A stretch of DNA of 64,000 nucleotides from a virus (lineage: Duplodnaviria; Caudoviricetes). A program made the position numbers and the translations under genes. Positions 850 through 64,000 of this stretch are shown here, piece by piece; the stretch's first letter is position 1; each line of letters opens with the position of its first letter. The stretch lies in the IMG/VR virus record IMGVR_UViG_3300043427_000994; one strand, given 5' to 3'. The notes under the pieces were generated by a model. That model saw only the letters and a program-made list of their open reading frames with translations, was not told the origin of the DNA and searched no databases.

Positions 850-1966
850 TATCTTTATTTCTATGCTGTCTATATGGGTTTATAAAATCTTCTTCCCATG
901 TACCTTCTTTAACTGCCCAGGCAAAATCTATAATGCGCCCTAGGCCGCCACCTATTTCACCAAACAAATCATCAAGATGTAACACTTCGTCAAATGTAGC
1001 ACCAGTACCTTCCATTATTAAACTAACAATCCAGTCGTTATCGCTGTTATCAATGGCTTCGTCGTATTTGGACCAAAGTTTGGGATTCTCTACAATGCGT
1101 TCGCCTAATCTACCTAACTTTTTAACTAAAGAAAATTCACGATCCATGGGCTCGGCGTCTTCCGTCAAACCATATTTTTTCATTAGAGCATATATTGGGC
1201 TACCTGGCGCAGGATTTTTTCCTGACTTTAAAAAAGCATTGATCATTCCCAATTCATGTTTCTTACGCTCAGCATCTTCTCCAATGTCGTCATTGGATTT
1301 TTTCTGTTTGACTTCGCCCTTCTTTTCAGAACGTTTGGCTTCTTTTTCTGCTTTTGCTCTGTCTCTTTCTTGTTGTTTTCTTAATTTTTCTTCTTCGGCC
1401 TGCATGTAAGGTAACATATATTCTCGAACAAGATCAAAATAAGGACGACCAGCAACTGTAGTATCTGCGGGTACACCGGAAAATTTTTCAAAGTCTTGAG
1501 GATTGTTTTCTTTAACTGCTTTGCGAACTAGACTTGCTTCACTCTTACGATCTGCTTTTTCCCATTCTATTCCGGCAAATTTATAATAACCGTGAGGACC
1601 TTCAATGCCATTTTGTTTTTGTATCATTGGTACGTAAATGTTTTTATCCTCAGGATCTGTAACTATACGTAAAATTGTGTTTTCACTGTGTTCCTTAAAA
1701 ACCATAACAGCCAATGTAAACCAACTCTGTTCCGCAACTAAATGTCCTTCTATTTCAGGATACACAGTTTTCATTGCTTCAATTTTAATTTCAAAAGGTA
1801 ATGGATCTTTAGGACCTTCGGTACTTTGGTTAGTGCCAATATACCAATGGGGAAACTTAGAAGCAACTATCCAAGCATCTCGATGACCATAGTGAGGAGG
1901 ATTAAACCTACCAAACATAATAGCAACATCATTGTTTTTATTTTCAAATAATTGTCTTAATCTCAT
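830..1966 (-). CDS. HIGH-family nucleotidyl/cytidylyltransferase-like protein with charged C-terminal extension
   Basis: MFGRFNPPHYGH = GRFxPxHxGH motif. Confidence 0.75.
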   Translation of the reverse strand: MRLRQLFENKNNDVAIMFGRFNPPHYGHRDAWIVASKFPHWYIGTNQSTEGPKDPLPFEIKIEAMKTVYPEIEGHLVAEQSWFTLAVMVFKEHSENTILRIVTDPEDKNIYVPMIQKQNGIEGPHGYYKFAGIEWEKADRKSEASLVRKAVKENNPQDFEKFSGVPADTTVAGRPYFDLVREYMLPYMQAEEEKLRKQQERDRAKAEKEAKRSEKKGEVKQKKSNDDIGEDAERKKHELGMINAFLKSGKNPAPGSPIYALMKKYGLTEDAEPMDREFSLVKKLGRLGERIVENPKLWSKYDEAIDNSDNDWIVSLIMEGTGATFDEVLHLDDLFGEIGGGLGRIIDFAWAVKEGTWEEDFINPYRQHRNKDNEHRRS

Positions 1967-3952: not shown

Positions 3953-4293
3953 TTATCACTCCTATCGTAGGTGCCTTTTTCTATTCTTTCTTTTTCATTA
4001 TGAAACATCTTTTCGGCTAATTCTTTGATTTCAGCATCAGAAAAAATATCTTTAGGATTTTTTCTAATTTTAAATTTTTTACAGTATGAATCAATTCCTT
4101 TTTTAATACAACCGTGAAAGTGATCTTGTTGACAACCTTGTCCACTTTTTAATTTATGTTTCATATCCGATATAGCAGGATATAGAATTTTTCTATAAAA
4201 CAAAGGATCGTTATTCATAAAGAACTGTAAGTCGTCAACTACATTAACGTCTTTAAGTTCATCAATTTTATCTGAAATTTCTTTTAATAGCAT
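3949..4293 (-). CDS. hypothetical protein (start corrected to MLLKEISD)
   Basis: ATG at 4293 abuts the upstream stop at 4295; the track extension to 4365 overlaps the upstream gene. Confidence 0.65.
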   Translation of the reverse strand: MLLKEISDKIDELKDVNVVDDLQFFMNNDPLFYRKILYPAISDMKHKLKSGQGCQQDHFHGCIKKGIDSYCKKFKIRKNPKDIFSDAEIKELAEKMFHNEKERIEKGTYDRSDK

Positions 4294-4294
4294 T

Positions 4295-4651
4295 TTACCA
4301 TTTCCTACATGACCAGTATCTTGCTTTAGTGCGTGGACCCGGATTGTCACAATTATGACGAGCACGGAAACTGCGTCTACGAGCAGGATTAGATTTTTTG
4401 ATTTTCATATTTGGGTCGCCAAAATTTACTTTGACGATGTTACCCCGAGGATTACGAACATAGACTTTGAACTTTTTAACATCGCCCTGCATGGGTTTTC
4501 CAAGAGGTACTTTTCGTCCGCGATACTCTGCTTCTTCCAATGTTTCTTCTACATTGCCGTAAAGCAGATAAAAATCATCACCGTGGTAGGTTTCTTCTAG
4601 CCAATTTGTTACGGCACTTAGAGATTCAAATAGTTCTTTAAAGGTTTTCAT
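4295..4651 (-). CDS. conserved basic phage protein (DUF6321-like) with T4 internal-protein-like N-terminus
   Basis: C-terminal RRRSFRARHNC...ARYWSCRKW; N-terminal MKTFKELFES. Confidence 0.65.
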   Translation of the reverse strand: MKTFKELFESLSAVTNWLEETYHGDDFYLLYGNVEETLEEAEYRGRKVPLGKPMQGDVKKFKVYVRNPRGNIVKVNFGDPNMKIKKSNPARRRSFRARHNCDNPGPRTKARYWSCRKW

Positions 4652-4698: not shown

Positions 4699-5349
4699 TT
4701 AAATTTCACTGTGGGTCACTAATTCTTCAACTTTTACTACTTTATTGCCTAAATAAAGGCGGCAAATGCTGAGAGTTTTAGCATCTGCTACATAAATGTA
4801 CCCACCGTATCTATAAGTACTTGCGTTTATTTTTATCTTAGACATCTTTTCAGCCCACTCTCTAAATACTGATTCGTCATTGAGCGGCTTTAAAGTAACC
4901 TTGTATTTGTGGGTATAGTCTTTTCTAATTATTATCTTAGGTCTACTAAGCAGTAATTCTTTAGTGGTTACGTTTTCTGGTTTAGAAATTTCTCGCAGTG
5001 TAATATTGTTAATGGAAGAAATTTTATCTACAATTTCTTCATTGTTAACATATACTCCTAGTATTGAACCTTCTACTCTCAGCGTATAATCATCTACTGT
5101 AGTTAGTAATTCAATTATTTTACCAGCAACTATAACGTCACCAACAACAGCATATTTTTTGCTCCAAGTAAAGCCAACCCTAATCTTTCCTTCCATATCT
5201 GAGTCAAACTTATTACTCAACTCAGTCAAGGATCGTTGGGTATCGACTAGTTTTTTTCCTCTAAAAAAGGTTGCTACAGGCGTCAGTATTGACACCTTGT
5301 ACGCATACCTATCAAAGAATAATTTATTAGTTTTCTTCAAGAATGGCAT
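4699..5349 (-). CDS. hypothetical protein
   Basis: 216-aa ORF overlapping the clpA end; no motif recognised. Confidence 0.7.
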   Translation of the reverse strand: MPFLKKTNKLFFDRYAYKVSILTPVATFFRGKKLVDTQRSLTELSNKFDSDMEGKIRVGFTWSKKYAVVGDVIVAGKIIELLTTVDDYTLRVEGSILGVYVNNEEIVDKISSINNITLREISKPENVTTKELLLSRPKIIIRKDYTHKYKVTLKPLNDESVFREWAEKMSKIKINASTYRYGGYIYVADAKTLSICRLYLGNKVVKVEELVTHSEI

Positions 5350-7564
5350 TTTCTTGTGCTTTTACAATTATTTCGTTATCAGCAACATCGATTGACACCT
5401 TGCCGCCATCCTTAAGTCCGCCAAACAACATTAGTTTAGACAGTGGACGTTTAATGTCTTTATCAATAACACGTTGTAAAGGACGAGCACCCATCTTGGG
5501 ATCAAAACCTTTTTCAACAAGGTAGTCAATGGCTTCATTACTAAGTGTAATCTTAATGCCTTTGTCTTTGACCTGTGTTTTTAACTCAACTAAGAACTTA
5601 CCAACAATTTTAATCATTGTTTCTTTGCTGAGTTTACCAAAGGTAATTATGCCGTCTAAACGATTGCGGAACTCTGGAGCAAAGAATTTCTTAAGTTCTT
5701 TATCTTCGTACCCGCTGTCTTGTGGACCAAAACCAATTGCGTTTCTATCTGCCTCGGCAGCACCCAAGTTTGTAGTCATAATCAACACAACATTACGAGC
5801 ATCTGCTTCTTTACCGTTGCTACCAGTAACCTTACCGTTGTCCATTAATTGTAGAAGGATAGTAGAAACATCGGGATGTGACTTTTCGACTTCGTCTAGT
5901 AATAATACACAATGTGGATGTTCTTGTAGTTTAGTAATCAGTAGGCCAGCATTTTCTTCAAAGCCAACATAACCTGGAGGCGATCCAATTAACTTACTAA
6001 CACTGTGTTTCTCTTGATATTCACTCATATCAAAGCGGATCATAGGAATGCCTAATTGTTTAGCCAACTGTTTGGCAGTTTCTGTTTTACCTGTACCAGT
6101 TGGGCCCATGAATACAAAACTACCTACGGGTTTGTTTTCACTCTTTAATCCTGCTTGTGCTACAAGAATCTTATCGACAATTTCTGTAATTGCTTCATCT
6201 TGTCCGTAAACCTCTCCTTTGAGATTCTTTTCAAGATTAACAAGATTTGAACTTTCTTTTTCTTTGATAGTGTCCTCTGGAAGATTTACCATCTTACTAA
6301 GTTCAAATTGAATACCAGGTACATCAACAATTTTATCTTCTTTAGAATTAATATTAAATCGCGAGCAAGCAACATCAATAAGGTCAATTGCTTTATCGGG
6401 TAATTTTTTATCTGTCATATAACGCACAGACAATTTAACTGCGGCCTCAATGGCTTCGTCGGTGATAGTAGCACCGTGATGTTTTTCGTAATATTTTTTA
6501 ACACCTTTGAGAATATCTACAGCCATTTCTGGAGTAGGCTCATCAACAGTAACACGTTGGAATCGGCGCATTAGGGCACGATCCTTTTCGAAGTACTTGC
6601 GATATTCTTCCCATGTTGTACTGGCAACTACTTTAATATTGCCCTTGCTTAGAGCAGGCTTCATCATGTTAGCAAGGTCGTTGCTATTTTGACTGCCACC
6701 AGCACCCGCACCGTTGATCATGTGTGCTTCGTCAATAAACAATACAGTCTTGCCTCTGCTTTGTAAGGCTTTAAGAACAAGTTTAAATCTTTCTTCAAAG
6801 TCTCCGCGATACTTACTACCAGCCAACATACTGCTGATATCAAGATTAAAAACAGTATATTCTTTTAAGAAATTTGGAACATGGTCGTGAATAATGTTAT
6901 AGGCCAAACCTTCTGCGATGGCAGTTTTACCAACTCCGGGATCGCCTACAAGCAGAATGTTGTTTTTATTTCTACGTCCTAGTCCTAGCGCAATTTGCTC
7001 TAATTCTTCAACTCGTCCAATTACTGGATCAATCTTATGCTTCTTGACCTGTTCATTAAGGTTGGTAGTAAATGATTTTAAAGCCTTTTCACTTTGAGCA
7101 TCAGTGACCTGTTCTTCTTCCTCGTCGATCTCGCTGTTGACAAAGTCAGCAAACTTTTCACGATCAACACCACCTTTGGTAATATAGTAAACAGCAAAAC
7201 TGCGCTTTTCACTCAAGGCACTTAGGAATACGTCTACAAGTTCGATACTTTGACGGCCACTGAACAATACCTGTGTAAACGCACGATTAAGTACACGCTC
7301 AACTGTTTGTGTTTTTTTAGGTTTAAATCCTTTTGGAATAGGATCAACTTTAATTTCGTCTAGTTTATTTTTGAGATAGTGTTCTAAATTTGTTTTGATA
7401 TAGTCACAGTCTGCTCCATAGTTAGATAGCAGATCAAAAAACTTTTCTTCGCAAAGCATAGCGAATACGAGATGTTCTAAAGTTACATACTCGTGACCCA
7501 GTTTCTTACAATCTGAAACTGCTTTTTCAAAAACTATTTGTAATTGATCACTTGGTTCTACCAT
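5327..7564 (-). CDS. clpA: ATP-dependent Clp protease ATP-binding subunit ClpA
   Basis: N-terminal HEYVTLEHL; two AAA+ modules (GDPGVGKT/LFIDEAH and GPTGTGKT/LLLDEVEK); GARPL; 745 aa with no ClpB M-domain. Confidence 0.95.
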   Translation of the reverse strand: MVEPSDQLQIVFEKAVSDCKKLGHEYVTLEHLVFAMLCEEKFFDLLSNYGADCDYIKTNLEHYLKNKLDEIKVDPIPKGFKPKKTQTVERVLNRAFTQVLFSGRQSIELVDVFLSALSEKRSFAVYYITKGGVDREKFADFVNSEIDEEEEQVTDAQSEKALKSFTTNLNEQVKKHKIDPVIGRVEELEQIALGLGRRNKNNILLVGDPGVGKTAIAEGLAYNIIHDHVPNFLKEYTVFNLDISSMLAGSKYRGDFEERFKLVLKALQSRGKTVLFIDEAHMINGAGAGGSQNSNDLANMMKPALSKGNIKVVASTTWEEYRKYFEKDRALMRRFQRVTVDEPTPEMAVDILKGVKKYYEKHHGATITDEAIEAAVKLSVRYMTDKKLPDKAIDLIDVACSRFNINSKEDKIVDVPGIQFELSKMVNLPEDTIKEKESSNLVNLEKNLKGEVYGQDEAITEIVDKILVAQAGLKSENKPVGSFVFMGPTGTGKTETAKQLAKQLGIPMIRFDMSEYQEKHSVSKLIGSPPGYVGFEENAGLLITKLQEHPHCVLLLDEVEKSHPDVSTILLQLMDNGKVTGSNGKEADARNVVLIMTTNLGAAEADRNAIGFGPQDSGYEDKELKKFFAPEFRNRLDGIITFGKLSKETMIKIVGKFLVELKTQVKDKGIKITLSNEAIDYLVEKGFDPKMGARPLQRVIDKDIKRPLSKLMLFGGLKDGGKVSIDVADNEIIVKAQENAILEEN

Positions 7565-53666: not shown

Positions 53667-56240
53667 TTAGTGTAAATCTACCCAAACCCCATTGGCACAA
53701 CCTTGGAATTTGTTTGTTGTAGTATTATATATTAAATCACCATTAACAGCAGTTAGCGTATCTCTAGTTGCTGAGGACATTGATGCTAGACGCAAAGGCG
53801 TATCAGCAATAATAACAGCGTTGGCAGCATCTAATGTGATATTTGTTGAACTGGTTAGTGTAGGTGAACCAGCCGCAGTTGATGTAAAGGATGCTGAAGT
53901 AACACTGGCAAAGGTAACACTGTCAGTGGTATTTAAACTTTGATCATAAGAGCCACCTCCTCCTAATACTGTTGCCCAACTTAGATTACCAGCACCATCT
54001 GTGGTTAAAAATTTTCCACTGTTGCCTGTCTGACTTGGTAATGTGTCACCAACGTCGGCTCCGGCAATAGTTAGTGTATCTGAACCAGCGTTAGTAGTTA
54101 AGGTAATATTATTTCCTGCTACTACAGTTAATGTATTTGTAGAAGAATCGGCAACTAGACTACTTTGACCTGATACTGCTATGGTACTAAATGAATTACT
54201 GTTACCTATAGGTCCCTGTGGTCCAGTAGCGCCTGTAGCGCCTGTAGCACCTGTGGGACCTTGTGGACCAACAAGAGTAGTTCCAGTTGGCCAACTACCA
54301 CCAGATTTAGGACCAAATATAAAATTAGTAGCAGTATTAATATAAAAGTCACCGTCAACACCTATCAACGAAGAAGGATTAGTTGAACCATATCTTACGG
54401 TTTTCCCATCAACACCCGCAGGGCCAGTTGGTCCTGTAGGTCCGGTTGGCCCGGTTGGCCCTGTAGGTCCCGCTGGCCCTGTAGGTCCCGCTGGCCCAGT
54501 CGGTCCGGGTTCTCCCTGAACACCTTGAGTTCCCTGTGGTCCTGTAGGTCCTGCTGGTCCAGTTGAACCGTTTGAACCCGCCGGTCCTTGTGATCCTTGT
54601 GGTCCTTGTGGTCCAGTTGGTCCTGTAGGCCCAATTGGTCCTCTAATTGGTCCAGCATTATTCCAACTGTCTCCGTCCCAAACGTATCCGTCTCCTGTGC
54701 TAGTTACTAGATACATGTCACCAGGAGTATTTCCTGTACTAGGTAGGTCAACTACATTGGTTACGCCACCTTGTAACTGTATACTTGTTCCCTGTGGTCC
54801 TTGTGGTCCAATTTCACCTTGAATTCCCTGTGGTCCAGTTGGTCCGGCAACACCTTGAATTCCCTGTGGTCCTGTAGGCCCCTCTGGTCCCTGATCGCCT
54901 TGATCACCTTTTGGTCCTGTAGGTCCCGTAGGTCCAGTTGGTCCTGTAGGTCCCTGTGGTCCTTCTGGTCCAGTTGGTCCAGTTGGTCCCTGTGCGCCTG
55001 TTGGGCCAATATCCCCCCTTGGTCCAGAATTACCTGCTGGTCCTGTAGCACCAATTGGTCCTTGTGGTCCCGGAGGGCCTTGACCTACATCTGTATCTGG
55101 ATCTGTTTGTTCTTCCAGAACAGGAATTACATTGATTACCTGCCCAAGTTCAATGTTAAGTTTAATTCCAAACACTATGTAAGCAGGATTATTGGGATCA
55201 ACTGATGATAGAATTAAATCAGTTTCGGCCCCAGGAACAATATAAAATAAGTTATCATCAGCAGAGAATGTACCTGCTGCAAAAGCATCTGGTTGAAGGA
55301 ATGTCGTAACAGTTACTTGTTTTATTCCCTGTAGTTCAACAACATTATAGGTCACCGACACAGTGTTATTGTCATCTGGGTGTGTATATGTTGCTGTGTA
55401 ATTACCTGTAGCAATAGAAGTGACGCTACCTGAAACAGTGAATATGTCGTTAATTACCACAGGCTCTAAAGATGGATCTGCGCTTTCAACAAATAGATTA
55501 TCAGCAGTAGTGTAACCGCTTCCGGGAGTATTAATAGATATTCCAATTAGTTCATCAACGCCATTGAATATAGGAGTATAAGTAGCGGGCAATGTTCCTG
55601 TAGGAGCAGTCTCGCCAATGGTTACCCCTTGTGTAAATGGACCAGATGGTGGATCAATTTCAATTGAGGTAGGATTTATTTCATCTACATTAAGAGTTCC
55701 AGATTCGCCATCGCCTGGAGTATAAAATATTGGTAGCGTAAATGTAGTACCGCTGATGTTGGCATCTGCTACACTGATAGTATAAGTTTCTGGAGTTACT
55801 TGACCGTTAATAACAACAGTAATAACTAATTGACTGCCAGCATCCGGACTGTCATATAATTCAACAGAAACTGGAAGATCTGTCCCCCAGTTGCTAAACC
55901 ATATAGATCTTTGTAGTCCTCCTACAACATTATATCGAGCACCTGCTATTTTTAAAGGACCGCCGAAGATTATTTCTCCGTCCTCGTTGGCTTTGATTTC
56001 AACACCGTCAATATCAATAGTTCCGGGCCCTACAAACAGTGTATGCCAGCGTTTGGTTGCGCTACCTAAATTGTAAGTGTTATTTGTATCGGGTAAAATA
56101 TTTTGATTTACTGATGATAGATCAACGTTCTCTACACTAATATAGAGCTCGCCTAACATTGTATCTATTTTCTTTAAAGAAGCAGAAAGTGCTTCTTTAC
56201 TTAGGACCTCGTTGCCTAATTTTAACGGATCGTATGCCAT
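53667..56240 (-). CDS. collagen-like fibre protein
   Basis: Long Gly-X-Y runs (GPT/GPQ/GAT), about 54200-55080. Confidence 0.9.
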
Positions 56241-60193: not shown

Positions 60194-60208
60194 AGTGCCC
60201 TCCTTTCT

Positions 60209-60523
60209 TTAAGCAATTAACCAATCTAAATCTTCTTTAACTTCAATACTTTCGCTACCATCGTATTCGTGAATACGAAATAGTGTACCTTCAGAAATCC
60301 ATTTAACAGTTAGGTCATCTAAACCCCCTGTGTAGATTTCAGGATATTTCATGGCTATGTAAGTTTCCAATTTAGCCATATCCTTTTTTTCAACACAATC
60401 TACAATCATAGGATCAAAAACAATTTCTGGATGTTCTTGATTCCAACTGTACCAACCTGCTCCAAAACCTGGAGAAAACAATATAGCAACTTTACCATCA
60501 CGAATGACTTTTTCCATTACCAC
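60209..60523 (-). CDS. hypothetical protein
   Basis: SPGFGAGWYSWN and FRIHEYDGSE blocks. Confidence 0.7.
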   Translation of the reverse strand: MVMEKVIRDGKVAILFSPGFGAGWYSWNQEHPEIVFDPMIVDCVEKKDMAKLETYIAMKYPEIYTGGLDDLTVKWISEGTLFRIHEYDGSESIEVKEDLDWLIA

Positions 60524-60708
60524 TCCTCCACACCAGAGATTTCAATATCAAAAGTTCCGCAATATCCATTTACTTCTTTCATAAATCTAATTGTAGTGAT
60601 TGAACCAATACCACTAGAATTTTCTTGAAGTAATTCAAAATTTGCTACTTCGGGAAACTTTGCTAGAACATCCTGAATTTTTTCAAGGTCTTTTCTATTC
60701 AAATACAT
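60517..60708 (-). CDS. hypothetical protein
   Basis: 63 aa; SSGIGS...DISGVEEW. Confidence 0.65.
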   Translation of the reverse strand: MYLNRKDLEKIQDVLAKFPEVANFELLQENSSGIGSITTIRFMKEVNGYCGTFDIEISGVEEW

Positions 60709-61271
60709 TAAATATCCCTTTCCTGTTTTTTGCGGTTGCGACGTTCTGCCGCAAGTGTAAAAACTTTTTCTTTATTGTTAGTCCAATCTACTGCCTTAGG
60801 CGGAACTACGATTCCTGACGGTAGCGTTACACCATTGATAGTGTGAGGCTCGTTTTCATCGTAGGTCCAACCTAAGACTTTCATCATCTTGTGTTTGACC
60901 ATTAAGTTAGGAGAGCGATATGCTTCAGTATCACGGAAGCCCATCATCACACCAACTTCACAAACAGCACCACTGCGGCATACTCCTGCTACACAGTGTA
61001 CAACAACATCCATCCTTTTGTCAAGGGCATGTTGTAAAAGAGCCACAAGTTTTTCTGCTTGTTGGTCTGTAATTTTAAATTCTTCACCCCAAGGATCATC
61101 TTTTTCTAGATCTAGAAATTCAAATTGGTGAACTTCTTTGAATTGTTGTTTTGGTATAGGAAATTCCATAGCAGGATCTACAATTTGGATCAACATAGAA
61201 TTTTCTTTCACAGCAACGTGATGTCCTTTTGGAATGTCTGCTAGTGATACATTTTGTATCCACGGATTCAT
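60708..61271 (-). CDS. protein-tyrosine / dual-specificity phosphatase-like protein
   Basis: VVVHCVAGVCRS = HCxxGxxRS; start corrected to 61271 because the track start lies inside tRNA-Arg. Confidence 0.82.
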   Translation of the reverse strand: MNPWIQNVSLADIPKGHHVAVKENSMLIQIVDPAMEFPIPKQQFKEVHQFEFLDLEKDDPWGEEFKITDQQAEKLVALLQHALDKRMDVVVHCVAGVCRSGAVCEVGVMMGFRDTEAYRSPNLMVKHKMMKVLGWTYDENEPHTINGVTLPSGIVVPPKAVDWTNNKEKVFTLAAERRNRKKQERDI

Positions 61272-61286
61272 AATTATTTCCTTAGT

Positions 61287-61361
61287 TGGTCCCACCGCCC
61301 AGAATCAAACTGAGATCTAAACCTTAGGAGTGTCTTGTTCTATTCATTGAACTACGGTGAG
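61287..61361 (-). tRNA. tRNA-Arg(CCU), slightly degenerate
   Basis: Acceptor CTCACCG/CGGTGGG, D-stem GTTC/GAAC, loop CT-CCT-AA, T-stem CTCAG/CTGGG, encoded CCA. T-loop is TTTGATT and there is an A31-G39 mismatch. Confidence 0.8.
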
Positions 61362-61368
61362 AAAAAAT

Positions 61369-61474
61369 TGGTGTGACCGGGAGGATTTGAACCTCCAAAG
61401 ACGGCATATCGCCTAGTCCCGACCTACCAACGCTTCCCAGCGGAGTAGAGCTTTGCCAATTTGCTCACGGTCAC
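61369..61474 (-). ncRNA. 106-nt tRNA-like RNA with non-canonical anticodon arm
   Basis: Perfect acceptor GTGACCG/CGGTCAC-A-CCA, D-arm GAGC-AAATTGGCAAA-GCTC, T-arm GGAGG-TTCAAAT-CCTCC; the 51-nt middle has two hairpins and no 7-nt anticodon loop on a 5-bp stem. Confidence 0.75.
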
Positions 61475-61480
61475 AGTATA

Positions 61481-61509
61481 ATTATATGACCTTTTCAAAT
61501 TGTTGTCAA
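61481..61509 (-). promoter_or_regulatory. sigma70-type promoter for the tRNA-like RNA / tRNA-Arg unit
   Basis: TTGACA (61504-61509) N17 TATAAT (61481-61486), 6 nt upstream of the RNA 5' end. Confidence 0.88.
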
Positions 61510-61946
61510 GTGACTATTAGATATTCGTAGTTTACAGTTGTTTCATTTTCCTGTAGTTCAAACGCACCGTTTTTTAAATGGAATTTTTTAGCCATTTCGG
61601 TTTTTGGACTAAGGGTAACAAATCGAGTTATAGTTGGAAACTCGTTTTTGATTGCTTCAACTACGCTGAAAAGTAGTTCTGCGGCTGCTCCTGGCGCATA
61701 ACTCCAAATAGTATAGAAAATAGCAGTTGTTGGTTGTTGTGGTGATTTTGATAAATCTTCTACAGAAGTTGGAACAAAGTCGTGTAAACTTACACAAACC
61801 ATGGCTTTAACTTTATTTTCTTCTACTGTAGATGCTACAAATTTATATGCTCCAACTCTTTGTTCTTTGGGAATCTCAGGACGTACTGGATCATCCTTGA
61901 TTAGCTCAAGTAGTGGGTCAGTGAGGTCTTGGATTAATCTTAGCAT
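61506..61946 (-). CDS. GNAT-fold protein resembling the malonyl-CoA decarboxylase catalytic domain
   Basis: TAIFYTIWS...VV..IK.EFP.I.RFVTLSP resembles MCD TAIFYSIS...VV..L..E.P....F.TLSP. Confidence 0.55.
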   Translation of the reverse strand: MLRLIQDLTDPLLELIKDDPVRPEIPKEQRVGAYKFVASTVEENKVKAMVCVSLHDFVPTSVEDLSKSPQQPTTAIFYTIWSYAPGAAAELLFSVVEAIKNEFPTITRFVTLSPKTEMAKKFHLKNGAFELQENETTVNYEYLIVT

Positions 61947-61989
61947 ATTATTATTTATCATTTACTGCGTATATTTCTATGTTTAACAT

Positions 61990-62229
61990 TAGTAAGGGGT
62001 CTAGAAAGATTTGGTTTGTCTAGCTCGACGGGCCACCGGAAGTTTTACAGTCCTCCCTTTCATAGTACAGCCTAACATGGGATCCAACAACACTCAACCT
62101 ACTTCTCCTGTAATGAGCAAGGTCATTTTGTATTTTTGTAAGGAATTTATAATTCCGATTATTTCAATTTTCCGAATTGAAATAGCCTCTTGTTAGATTA
62201 CAATCATTAGATCATGTGACCCCTTACCA
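61990..62229 (-). ncRNA. candidate ~240-nt structured ncRNA
   Basis: 12-bp closing helix TGGTAAGGGGTC/GACCCCTTACTA (one G-U on the minus strand); internal 10-bp and 6-bp hairpins. Confidence 0.5.
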
Positions 62230-62239
62230 ATGCCAAAAA

Positions 62240-62458
62240 TTAATGATTTTTACGGATATACTTTTTAAGATATTCAGACTTATCTATTTTGTTTTCTTCA
62301 ATTTCCCTTAGTGCTAGAACAGTGGGGGTATTGTCGCTTTTATCGATCAACGGAGCACTACCGTTTTTAATTTCTCTAGCACGTTGCGACGCTACTAAAA
62401 CTAAATCAAATCTATTTCCAACAACTTCGGCTGCTTTTTGTGCGGTAATTTTAGCCAC
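62240..62458 (-). CDS. rpoZ: RNA polymerase omega subunit homolog (copy 1)
   Basis: GTG start at 62458 with SD AAGGA; (M)[28 protein letters not shown]...TVLALREIE. Confidence 0.9.
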   Translation of the reverse strand: MAKITAQKAAEVVGNRFDLVLVASQRAREIKNGSAPLIDKSDNTPTVLALREIEENKIDKSEYLKKYIRKNH

Positions 62459-62569
62459 GATTTTGTCCTTATAATAAAACGAAGAGAGAAAGGCAAGTAA
62501 TAGACTGGACAATATACAAACGAGATAGTGTTTTATTACATCTCTCTTACAAGCCACAAGGGTCAACGC

Positions 62570-62775
62570 ACAGGGGCTCGTGTATTTCCAGTTAGCAAAT
62601 CACAAAGTCGATTAGATAATATAGACTGGCTCATACAAGCACGAACAGTTTTCAAGGCTGTTTGCTGGAGTAAGTTCATTTGATCTTTATAAGAGATCAA
62701 ACACTATGGCATGTAGCCATAGTTGGTCTATCCTCATCTCCTTCTCTACTACGACTAGTTTTAATAAACTAGTAA
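62570..62775 (-). ncRNA. multi-hairpin non-coding segment between tRNA(CAU) and rpoZ copy 1
   Basis: Hairpins actagttt/aaactagt, ctatggc/gccatag, tttgatct/agatcaaa, aacag/ctgtt, ccagt/actgg. Confidence 0.4.
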
Positions 62776-62778
62776 AAC

Positions 62779-62852
62779 TGGTTGCGGGACCCGGAATCGA
62801 ACCAGGAACTAGAGCTTATGAGACTCTCGAGATGCCGTTTCTCTATCCCGCG
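62779..62852 (-). tRNA. tRNA-Met(CAU), initiator-like (C1:A72, A11:U24)
   Basis: CGCGGGA/TCCCGCA-A-CCA, D-stem GAGA/TCTC, loop CT-CAT-AA, T-arm CCTGG-TTCGATT-CCGGG. Confidence 0.9.
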
Positions 62853-62856
62853 ATAA

Positions 62857-63023
62857 CTTTAGTTGATAGTACTCGCCGTCTATGACAACGTGTCTATTTA
62901 GGAGTCCGGTGCTTCCGTTCCACAGCATCTAACAACAGTTATTTCAGACCTAGTAACATGCCATACTATGTCGCGTAGTATATGCGTCCATATACGATAC
63001 CTGTCGAGTGCTATCAACTAAAG
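62857..63023 (+). ncRNA. candidate 167-nt structured RNA closed by a 19-bp helix
   Basis: ctttagttgatagtactcg (62857-62875) / cgagtgctatcaactaaag (63005-63023); three helices give G-U on the plus strand but A-C on the minus strand. Confidence 0.5.
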
Positions 63024-63222
63024 TGTCTAGCCACGGTTCCCTGTCCGCCCTAGACTGAGTTGTTACCCTGTCCACTGTATTTTGCTTCTGGTGCCGTTAC
63101 AGTTCGTACCTAGGATTTTTCAAGTCGCTCCTAAAGAGAGCCTTGCGGTAGATCCTACACACCGTACCTTCTATCGCTTGGTAATGGCGCACTTTCTTCC
63201 TGAAAAGTGTAACAGGGGTCTG
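63024..63222 (-). ncRNA. candidate ornate structured RNA domain
   Basis: Minus-strand pairs TGTAACAG/CTGTTACA, CACTTT/AAAGTG, TAGGAT/ATCCTA, GCTC/GAGC, ACTGTA/TACAGT, GTCTAG/CTAGAC; more GC-rich than the flanking genes. Confidence 0.5.
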
Positions 63223-63795
63223 TTACAGTAAGCCTTCTGCCTGCAGGGTAGCCACTGTGTCATCAGCCAGAGGAATCTCTGTCTTGATGTTAAGCTCAAG
63301 AACCTCATCGTTGATCTTTTGCTTGGACTTCTTCAAGCTAAGGATTTCTCCTTTGGCCTGATCGATCTGTTCTTTACTGACCACAGTAGTACTCACTGTG
63401 TCACCGTAGCCGTAGATACGACTACGAGCTTCGTCCTTGAGACTTTTGATTTTCTCAAGTTTACCTTTAATCACTTCGAGATCAGTAAAAGGTTTTAGAT
63501 CAGATAACTGTTCTAGTTGACCAATACGTTTATCGATAAATGCTGCTTTGGCCAAGGCAGTATCAATGCCGCTGGCCGCATTAGCTGTACCAACTAAGGC
63601 TCGAATGTTATACAGAGCCATTGTTAGTTTTTGACGACGAGCATCTGCAGCGAACAGTGCTTCGTTGGCTTTGGTTAGTTCAATTCCGGGATCCTGGAAC
63701 TCGTTGAGTTCGACTGTGGTGTCGAACTTGATATTCTTTACTGCATCGTTGATGCTGTTCTGGATGGTGTTGGCTTTCCTCAGAGTGATATTCAT
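63223..63795 (-). CDS. helical/coiled-coil hypothetical protein
   Basis: Start corrected to MNITLRKA (63795), ATGA-coupled to the upstream omega copy 2. Confidence 0.75.
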
Positions 63796-64000
63796 TCCCA
63801 TTTCGATTTTTCCTTTTTCTTCAATTTAGTTAGATATTCTGATTTGGTATACTTGCCTTGTTCAATCTCTCTTAGAGCTGTAATAGTAGGTGATGCATCT
63901 TTTCCATCTACTCGTTGAATTGATCCGTTCTTTAATTCTCTAGCTCTCTGACTGGCAACTAAGACTAGATCAAATCTGTTACCAATTTGATTTACTGCTT
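63792..64000 (-). CDS. rpoZ: RNA polymerase omega subunit homolog (copy 2; 5' end outside the window; not in ORF track)
   Basis: Manual translation: [68 protein letters not shown]; stop TGA at 63792-63794. Confidence 0.9.

Follow-up and report, generated by a model that had tools for sequence, protein, structure and literature searches.

The window analyzed here, i.e., the whole 64,000-nucleotide stretch of viral DNA presented from IMG/VR record IMGVR_UViG_3300043427_000994 (Caudoviricetes), carries at its right end (positions 62240 to 64000) two intact, selected genes that encode the smallest bacterial RNA polymerase subunit, omega (RpoZ). A first-pass annotation made from the letters alone had proposed two omega paralogs 1.3 kb apart, and this proved accurate: both open reading frames are real, lie on the minus strand, and are separated by 1,333 nt. 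The first gene, omega-1 (62240 to 62458 including the stop codon, minus strand), encodes a 72-amino-acid RpoZ homolog. It starts with a GTG at 62458, is preceded by an AAGGA Shine-Dalgarno sequence 7 nt upstream of the GTG, and ends with a stop codon at 62240. The protein begins with MAKITAQKAAEVVGNRF, with an N terminus that reads MAKIT after the GTG start as had been stated, carries VLALREIE, and ends with KSEYL. The second gene, omega-2 (63792 to 64000, minus strand), runs past the window end, as had also been recognized. Its TGA stop lies at 63792 to 63794, 68 of its 76 codons fall inside the window, and the first 8 residues (MARISSEE) are cut off by the edge. The visible part carries ITALREIE and KSEYL, and the other motifs that had been quoted as shared by the two proteins are likewise all present. 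The omega-2 N terminus, which was to be sought by extending the contig, could be read from contig L002. This contig is 99% identical over window positions 62775 to 64000 and gives the complete 76-amino-acid protein with an ATG start and the N terminus MARISSEE.

Profile searches placed both proteins well above the respective cut-offs. PF01192 (Pfam; cut-off, 26 bits) matched omega-1 with 61.3 bits (E value, 9e-17) and omega-2 with 50.3 bits (E value, 2e-13), and the rpoZ equivalog model TIGR00690 (cut-off, 23.6 bits) matched them with 51.6 and 50.4 bits, respectively, covering positions 1 to 59 of the 60-position model. The two proteins share 66% identity over 56 amino acids (E value, 3e-26). 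A database protein of the same length as omega-1 (P0121) was 99% identical by BLASTP to a 74-amino-acid query form of omega-1, and omega-2 aligned collinearly with solved omega chains of the Escherichia coli type over residues 1 to 71. Comparison of 162 phage-type and 55 cellular sequences identified 19 core positions that are conserved to at least 90% in both sets (shared positions: G14, R16, F17, L19 to L21, A23, R26 to R28, G33, A49 to E54, and G56), and omega-1 and omega-2 have all of them. The beta'-contacting core, comprising the GNRFDLV..A..RAR helix and the ALREI..G helix, is present in both proteins, and this conservation would fit a preserved omega fold and beta' contact.

Both genes are under purifying selection, and neither is a pseudogene. 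A copy lacking a start codon had been named beforehand as a finding that would speak against two functional genes; both start codons are present, and the ratio of nonsynonymous to synonymous substitution rates (dN/dS) is well below 1 for either gene. For omega-1, a dN/dS of 0.13 was obtained against an 85%-identical variant, and close omega-1 variants differed by 0 nonsynonymous and 4 to 7 synonymous changes. Orthologs of omega-2 gave dN/dS values of 0.03 to 0.2.

Omega-2 is the ortholog of the conserved single-copy omega of a whole phage clade, present in more than 100 related IMG/VR contigs. It is followed by p192 (63223 to 63795, minus strand), a gene for a conserved 190-amino-acid all-helical protein, the ATG of which overlaps the omega-2 TGA (ATGA). 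A p192-type protein of 190 to 192 amino acids was located directly after omega in about 35 of the 58 viral loci, and this adjacency holds across 50 to 100% omega identity. The p192 alignment showed a mean column identity of 74% (18 sequences), and an AlphaFold2 model was all-helical with a predicted local distance difference test score of 89. No match to p192 was found in Pfam, PHROGs, NCBIfam, or the PDB sequences. A Foldseek search of the model against the PDB returned no hit with an E value of ≤0.001, the best being 3kdq, a protein of unknown function (E value, 0.03). Look-alikes fell into Atlas clusters that are 91 to 100% viral hypothetical proteins, with a weak lead to DUF6847. Complex prediction for omega-2 with p192 scored 0.00, which gives no verdict and is evidence neither way.

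Downstream of p192 lies a structured noncoding RNA region of 370 nt (62853 to 63222, minus strand; z-score of the minimum free energy, -3.43). It consists of two modules at about 63008 to 63222 (~215 nt) and 62855 to 63023 (~170 nt), and nhmmer detected it in this two-module form in more than 60 related loci, in most cases immediately behind p192. Covariation was evaluated for two helices in 41 distinct sequences: 94% of the alignment cells were paired compared to 28 to 51% in slid controls, and the covariation score was 0.606 compared to at most 0.117 in these controls. Rfam searches of 61200 to 63300, at the gathering threshold and at an E value of ≤1, detected tRNAs only and no family for the RNA region. 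Taken together, the adjacency of p192 and the conservation of the RNA show that the conserved unit is omega, then p192, then the structured RNA. Two RNA-library runs share a piece of ~50 nt at 63114 to 63169, inside the structured RNA.

The next feature is a tRNA-Met gene (CAT; 62779 to 62852, minus strand; detected by ARAGORN and Rfam), which separates the conserved omega-2 block from the slot of omega-1, the content of which differs between strains. To the left of 62775, the relatives L002, L003, and L005 no longer match the window and have no omega-1 at that site; they replace positions 60208 to 62775 with an IF-1 homolog and genes for tRNA-Pro, -Gly, -Gly, and -Arg. In the window's lineage, the slot contains omega-1 and, downstream of it, a gene similar to the C-terminal domain of malonyl-CoA decarboxylase (MCD-like; 61506 to 61961, minus strand; 151 amino acids; PF05292, 32.3 bits compared to a cut-off of 23.2). 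We take this domain to have a GNAT-like fold. The omega-1 lineage is also represented in metagenomes by proteins that are 63 to 99% identical (P0121 to P0125). A gene for an MCD-like protein of 146 to 151 amino acids followed omega-1 in every contig of this lineage that was long enough to show the next gene, and the order tRNA-Met, omega-1, MCD-like gene, tRNA-Arg was seen whole or in part in these contigs. In strain L160, the omega-1 protein is identical (0 nonsynonymous differences) and the cassette DNA is 96% identical, while the C terminus of p192 is only 56% identical, and this disparity points to an exchange of the omega-1 region between strains.

We next consider the region upstream of both genes. 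Pairwise alignment showed that the homology between omega-1 and omega-2 reaches ~150 bp upstream of the start codons. The upstream region of omega-1 (62459 to 62612, minus strand) contains TTGCCT-17-TATAAG besides the AAGGA Shine-Dalgarno sequence. These hexamers are homologous to, and weaker than, the TTGACC-17-TATAAT of omega-2, which combines them with an ATG instead of a GTG start. The sigma70-like hexamers at both genes represent one kind of signal and not two temporal classes. The T4 late-promoter sequence TATAAATA occurs only twice in the window, which is below chance. The omega upstream region is conserved across the clade in blocks such as TTGTCCGGTCTATTACTTGACC, the L002 copy lying at positions 4212 to 4360 (minus strand), and a 21-nt upstream core was found once in the window compared to 0 expected occurrences. 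A riboswitch or leader RNA upstream of omega was considered and dropped, as RNAalifold predicted almost no structure (-3.4 kcal/mol). Since no RNA structure was found, the region is probably a regulatory region at the DNA level. Contigs from RNA libraries cover only small parts of the locus (62590 to 62755, 63114 to 63169, and 63797 to 63995), too little to claim expression. The first of these parts corresponds to a 166-nt freshwater metatranscriptome contig (X18) that differs at one position from the spacer lying between tRNA-Met and the omega-1 upstream region. At 62723 to 62703, there is a terminator-like hairpin.

Several observations bear on the age and origin of omega-1. Synonymous sites between omega-1 and omega-2 are saturated (proportion of synonymous differences, 0.72; dS, >2), and a recent tandem duplication is therefore not the source of the pair. 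The best cellular match to omega-1 among 401 Pseudomonadota genomes showed 58% identity over 59 residues, which is below the 66% shared with omega-2, and both omegas are about equally far from every sampled cellular omega (at most 58 to 60% identity). In a phylogenetic tree, the cellular gammaproteobacterial omegas formed one clade on a long branch with 100/100 support, and the omega-1 type was placed beside it among phage sequences; the deeper order of the tree must be considered unsure with about 75 residues. Because the region upstream of omega-1 is homologous to the clade-wide conserved region upstream of omega-2 and has no further copy in the window, omega-1 derives from a phage omega locus and not from a bacterial rpoZ operon. 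Omega-1 is thus an anciently diverged second copy of the phage-type omega that was copied together with its ~150-bp upstream region and occupies a strain-variable slot. The omega from another viral record (L051; IMGVR_UViG_2609460218_000014) fell inside the Enterobacterales cellular omegas in the tree; this contig is probably cellular or prophage-flanking DNA, and its omega would then not be of the phage type.

We also inspected whether the two genes are contiguous. IMG/VR record G000 (66,227 bp) ends at window position 62971, between the two omega genes. The window extends 1,029 nt beyond this record (62972 to 64000) and differs from it at two bases (window positions 54240 and 54243); it therefore derives from a longer, near-identical record. 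Four further IMG/VR contigs, recovered from different samples, contain an exact match to a 47-mer spanning position 62971. Four DNA sequencing runs from two freshwater studies contained 90 to 97% of the sampled words of 61500 to 64000, and the unitigs of two runs, one per study, tiled this interval with 0 to 1 differences, one unitig spanning 62845 to 63034. The independent NCBI metagenome contig L160 runs from the last 50 codons of the p192 homolog through the noncoding RNA, tRNA-Met, and omega-1 into the next gene. The unitig graph branches at tRNA-Met, which is consistent with a mixture of strains whose sequences diverge on the left of this gene. The contiguity of the two genes is thus supported by independent assemblies and read sets.

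The source of the DNA is an uncultured freshwater jumbo phage of about 350 to 370 kb, and the omega genes lie in a tRNA island of its genome. That the DNA is of phage origin, as had been assumed at the outset, is borne out by the IMG/VR record and by structural and replication genes; the window encodes tail-fiber and baseplate proteins, a ligase, and a ClpA-like ATPase. CheckV rated 66 kb as 18% complete, which corresponds to a genome of about 370 kb, and relatives with the same omega block measure 341 to 383 kb and are rated 92 to 100% complete. In relatives, the island holds the 72-amino-acid IF-1 homolog (PF01176; L002, positions 1571 to 1789, minus strand; also L008, L009, and L010) and up to 11 tRNA genes; in the window's lineage, the omega-1 and MCD-like genes occupy that slot. 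On the far side of the MCD-like gene, the window contains tRNA-Arg(CCT) at 61287 to 61361 and, adjoining it, a tRNA-like element at 61372 to 61474 (minus strand) that matched the Rfam tRNA model with 32 bits (gathering threshold, 29; E value, 0.0003) and was not called by ARAGORN. The ClpA-like ATPase (5327 to 7564, minus strand; phrog_4871, E value, 5e-250) is 39 to 44% identical to homologs in Klebsiella phage RaK2, Agrobacterium phage Atu_ph07, Sinorhizobium phage Phosso, Xanthomonas phage XaC1, and Vibrio phage 2.275.O. The nearest cultured relatives are therefore jumbo phages of the RaK2/Atu_ph07 type, which are of similar size (346 to 490 kb). Unlike the phage studied here, none of these five genomes gave a match to the Rpb6/omega family.

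A cultured phage with an omega gene was not found. PHROGs contained no family matching omega-1 or omega-2, a megablast search of the region against the INPHARED phages gave no match, and a tblastn search with omega-2 against 50,697 deposited phage records returned only matches of about 50% identity or less. Several of these matches correspond to annotated Salmonella rpoZ or stem from very short or odd records, and they were set aside as host DNA. Full-text literature searches on phage-encoded omega (rpoZ or omega subunit combined with phage, jumbo phages, or huge phages) returned no relevant paper. Scans of IMG/VR, in turn, yielded 58 stretches encoding a relative with the omega-2 query and 116 with the omega-1 query, on contigs of up to 525 kb. 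The rpoZ copy number in related phages, a survey of which had been suggested by the first-pass annotation, was determined by whole-record Pfam searches. Exactly one omega was detected in 27 of 28 large related records, eight of these being at least 90% complete. Furthermore, no second omega was present within 4 kb in any of the 58 loci of the omega-2-query scan. Both counts show that having two copies, as the window's lineage does, is unusual. Two omegas were otherwise seen only in G429 from IMG/VR (524,565 bp, rated 100% complete), which has two tRNA-and-omega islands (L248 and L249) that are syntenic, inverted, 70 to 77% identical, and 311 kb apart. This record may represent two related phage genomes joined during assembly and is not a clean second case.

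To which polymerase could these subunits bind? No match to beta' (PF00623), beta (PF00562), or sigma70 region 2 (PF04542) was found in the complete relatives G001 (353 kb) and G002 (383 kb) or in G003 and G000. The combination of beta and beta' in the same genome, which would mark a phage-encoded multisubunit RNA polymerase, was thus absent from these four records, the window's own genome being covered to 18%. A T7-type polymerase (PF00940) was not detected in the same relatives either, a result that shows little, as 14 control genomes were also empty. A single match, in G002, to a DNA-level pattern for the universal DFDGD motif fell into a head-fiber-like structural gene beside a tail-collar protein and was discarded as a polymerase candidate. 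Since the complete relatives revealed no polymerase of their own, we infer that the host beta' is the only plausible partner of the phage omegas.

We therefore favor, with a probability of roughly 60%, the reading that both omegas are functional phage-borne RpoZ proteins that dock on the host beta' and that omega-1 is a mobile extra cassette. Each phage omega would bind beta' as the host omega does and would replace or supplement the latter in infected cells. The likely purpose would be that RNA polymerase stays assembled and active once host gene expression has been shut off, and the pocket between beta' and omega that binds ppGpp might possibly be retuned as well. Omega-1 would serve the same function as omega-2 and would not be a stage-specific variant. 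In terms of the clade, these freshwater jumbo phages probably supply their own omega to the host polymerase, and the lineage of the window probably retained an additional, exchangeable copy that has another gene as its neighbor. Several points weigh against this interpretation. A highly diverged phage polymerase might escape Pfam models, and the substitutions that are fixed in the phage proteins (R25Q, Q29E, and loss of the NDKPT loop) could reflect a change of partner or interface. Being so closely linked to p192 and the RNA, omega may do more than supply a subunit, and 72 to 76 residues are too few for the tree to decide between a duplication within the lineage and a transfer from another phage as the source of omega-1.

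The linkage to p192 could also be read differently, with omega acting as a docking handle that brings p192, and perhaps the structured RNA, onto the host RNA polymerase, and omega-1 doing likewise for a GNAT-like enzyme. The ATGA overlap, the persistence of the omega-p192 pair in about 35 of 58 loci at 50 to 100% omega identity, the RNA that follows p192 in many loci, and the MCD-like gene that comes after omega-1 in every sufficiently long contig of its lineage would all be expected for such adaptors. However, conserved gene order by itself says little about binding, no fold or family could be recognized for p192, and in some distant phages with omega, p192 lies at another place in the locus or is absent from the surrounding 4 kb. 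We consider an adaptor function unlikely. In an extended version, omega-2, its coupled p192, and the structured RNA would form a phage ribonucleoprotein module that docks via the omega site and reprograms the host RNA polymerase, with omega-1 and its GNAT-like neighbor as a second, exchangeable docking module; this proposal is quite doubtful. If true, a large clade of freshwater jumbo phages would generally achieve take-over through core-subunit mimicry.

The first-pass annotation had itself suggested that the two omegas build two stage-specific forms of the host RNA polymerase with altered sensitivity to ppGpp or altered sigma preference. This suggestion draws on the N termini. A passage in PMC6416229 that cites Hauryliuk 2015 links the N-terminal MAR motif to ppGpp binding in proteobacteria. 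MAR is kept in omega-2 and in about 60% of 169 collected family proteins, whereas MAK is found in omega-1 and in about 12% of them, and further phage-family N termini are MTxRL, MSR, and long extensions (the latter in the G002 clade). The N terminus of the phage omegas is thus less constrained than the core. Such variability, the difference between MAR and MAK at the ppGpp-contact motif, and the weaker signals of omega-1 (TATAAG and GTG compared to TTGACC-17-TATAAT and ATG) would be compatible with two polymerase forms. On the other hand, R to K is a conservative exchange and other members of the omega-1 lineage have MAR; the retention of MAR in omega-2 and most of the family, together with the conservative MAK in omega-1, would argue against a simple loss of ppGpp site 1. 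Moreover, the upstream regions are homologous to each other, with sigma70-like hexamers at both genes instead of different promoter classes, and a single omega suffices in 27 of 28 large related records. The stage-specific scenario is not supported by these findings and appears improbable.

A further possibility is that the two omegas fit the beta' subunits of different hosts, the two copies serving two host lineages. That two old copies, 34% different from each other, have both been maintained by selection, and that the omega-1 cassette moves between strains, could be understood in this way. Both copies are about equally distant from the sampled cellular omegas (at most 58 to 60%), however, and their core contact residues are the same, which makes this possibility very unlikely. 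Finally, an artifact (assembly chimera, host contamination, or dead duplicate), as might be suspected from the end of G000 between the two genes and from the graph branch at tRNA-Met with its differing depths, is extremely improbable given the exact junction 47-mer in four other contigs, the independent joining of p192, RNA, tRNA-Met, and omega-1 in L160, the 90 to 97% of sampled words in four DNA runs of two studies, the phage neighbor genes, the position of the omegas outside the cellular clade, and the low dN/dS of both copies.

Compared to bacterial omega (RpoZ), e.g., the E. coli omega in solved RNA polymerase, the phage omega can be aligned collinearly starting at residue 1, and about 50% of the first 60 residues are identical. 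The phage proteins keep all core residues that are invariant in cellular omegas, and omega-2 also has the MAR motif. The differences concern the remaining parts of the protein and its genetic context. R25Q, Q29E, the loss of the NDKPT loop, and a KYT..DYL C-terminal signature are fixed in the phage set, the N terminus is variable, and the long acidic tail of bacterial omega contrasts with the short phage proteins (72 to 76 amino acids) with a basic tail. While bacterial rpoZ is found in a gmk-rpoZ-spoT neighborhood (PMC6416229), the phage omegas reside in a tRNA island, and one of the phage omega genes is coupled to the gene of a 190-amino-acid protein.

The two-copy genome constitutes a natural variant pair with MAR and MAK N termini and different partner genes, and the block of omega, the 190-amino-acid protein, and the structured RNA points to further components. 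In proteobacteria, omega is located at the site on beta' where the starvation signal ppGpp binds, and through its omega a phage could thus act directly on the stringent response of the infected cell. Known phage proteins for the take-over of host RNA polymerase comprise the gp55/gp33 late sigma system, AsiA/MotA, and the ADP-ribosylating Alt/Mod of T4, as well as Gp2 of T7; they are sigma-like factors, inhibitors, or modifying enzymes without homology to core subunits. To our knowledge, no phage has been described that supplies a homolog of a core RNA polymerase subunit. The logic would be shared, in that a phage without its own polymerase adds or changes a small component of the host enzyme. 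The phage omega differs from the T4 and T7 proteins in being a homolog of the core subunit itself.

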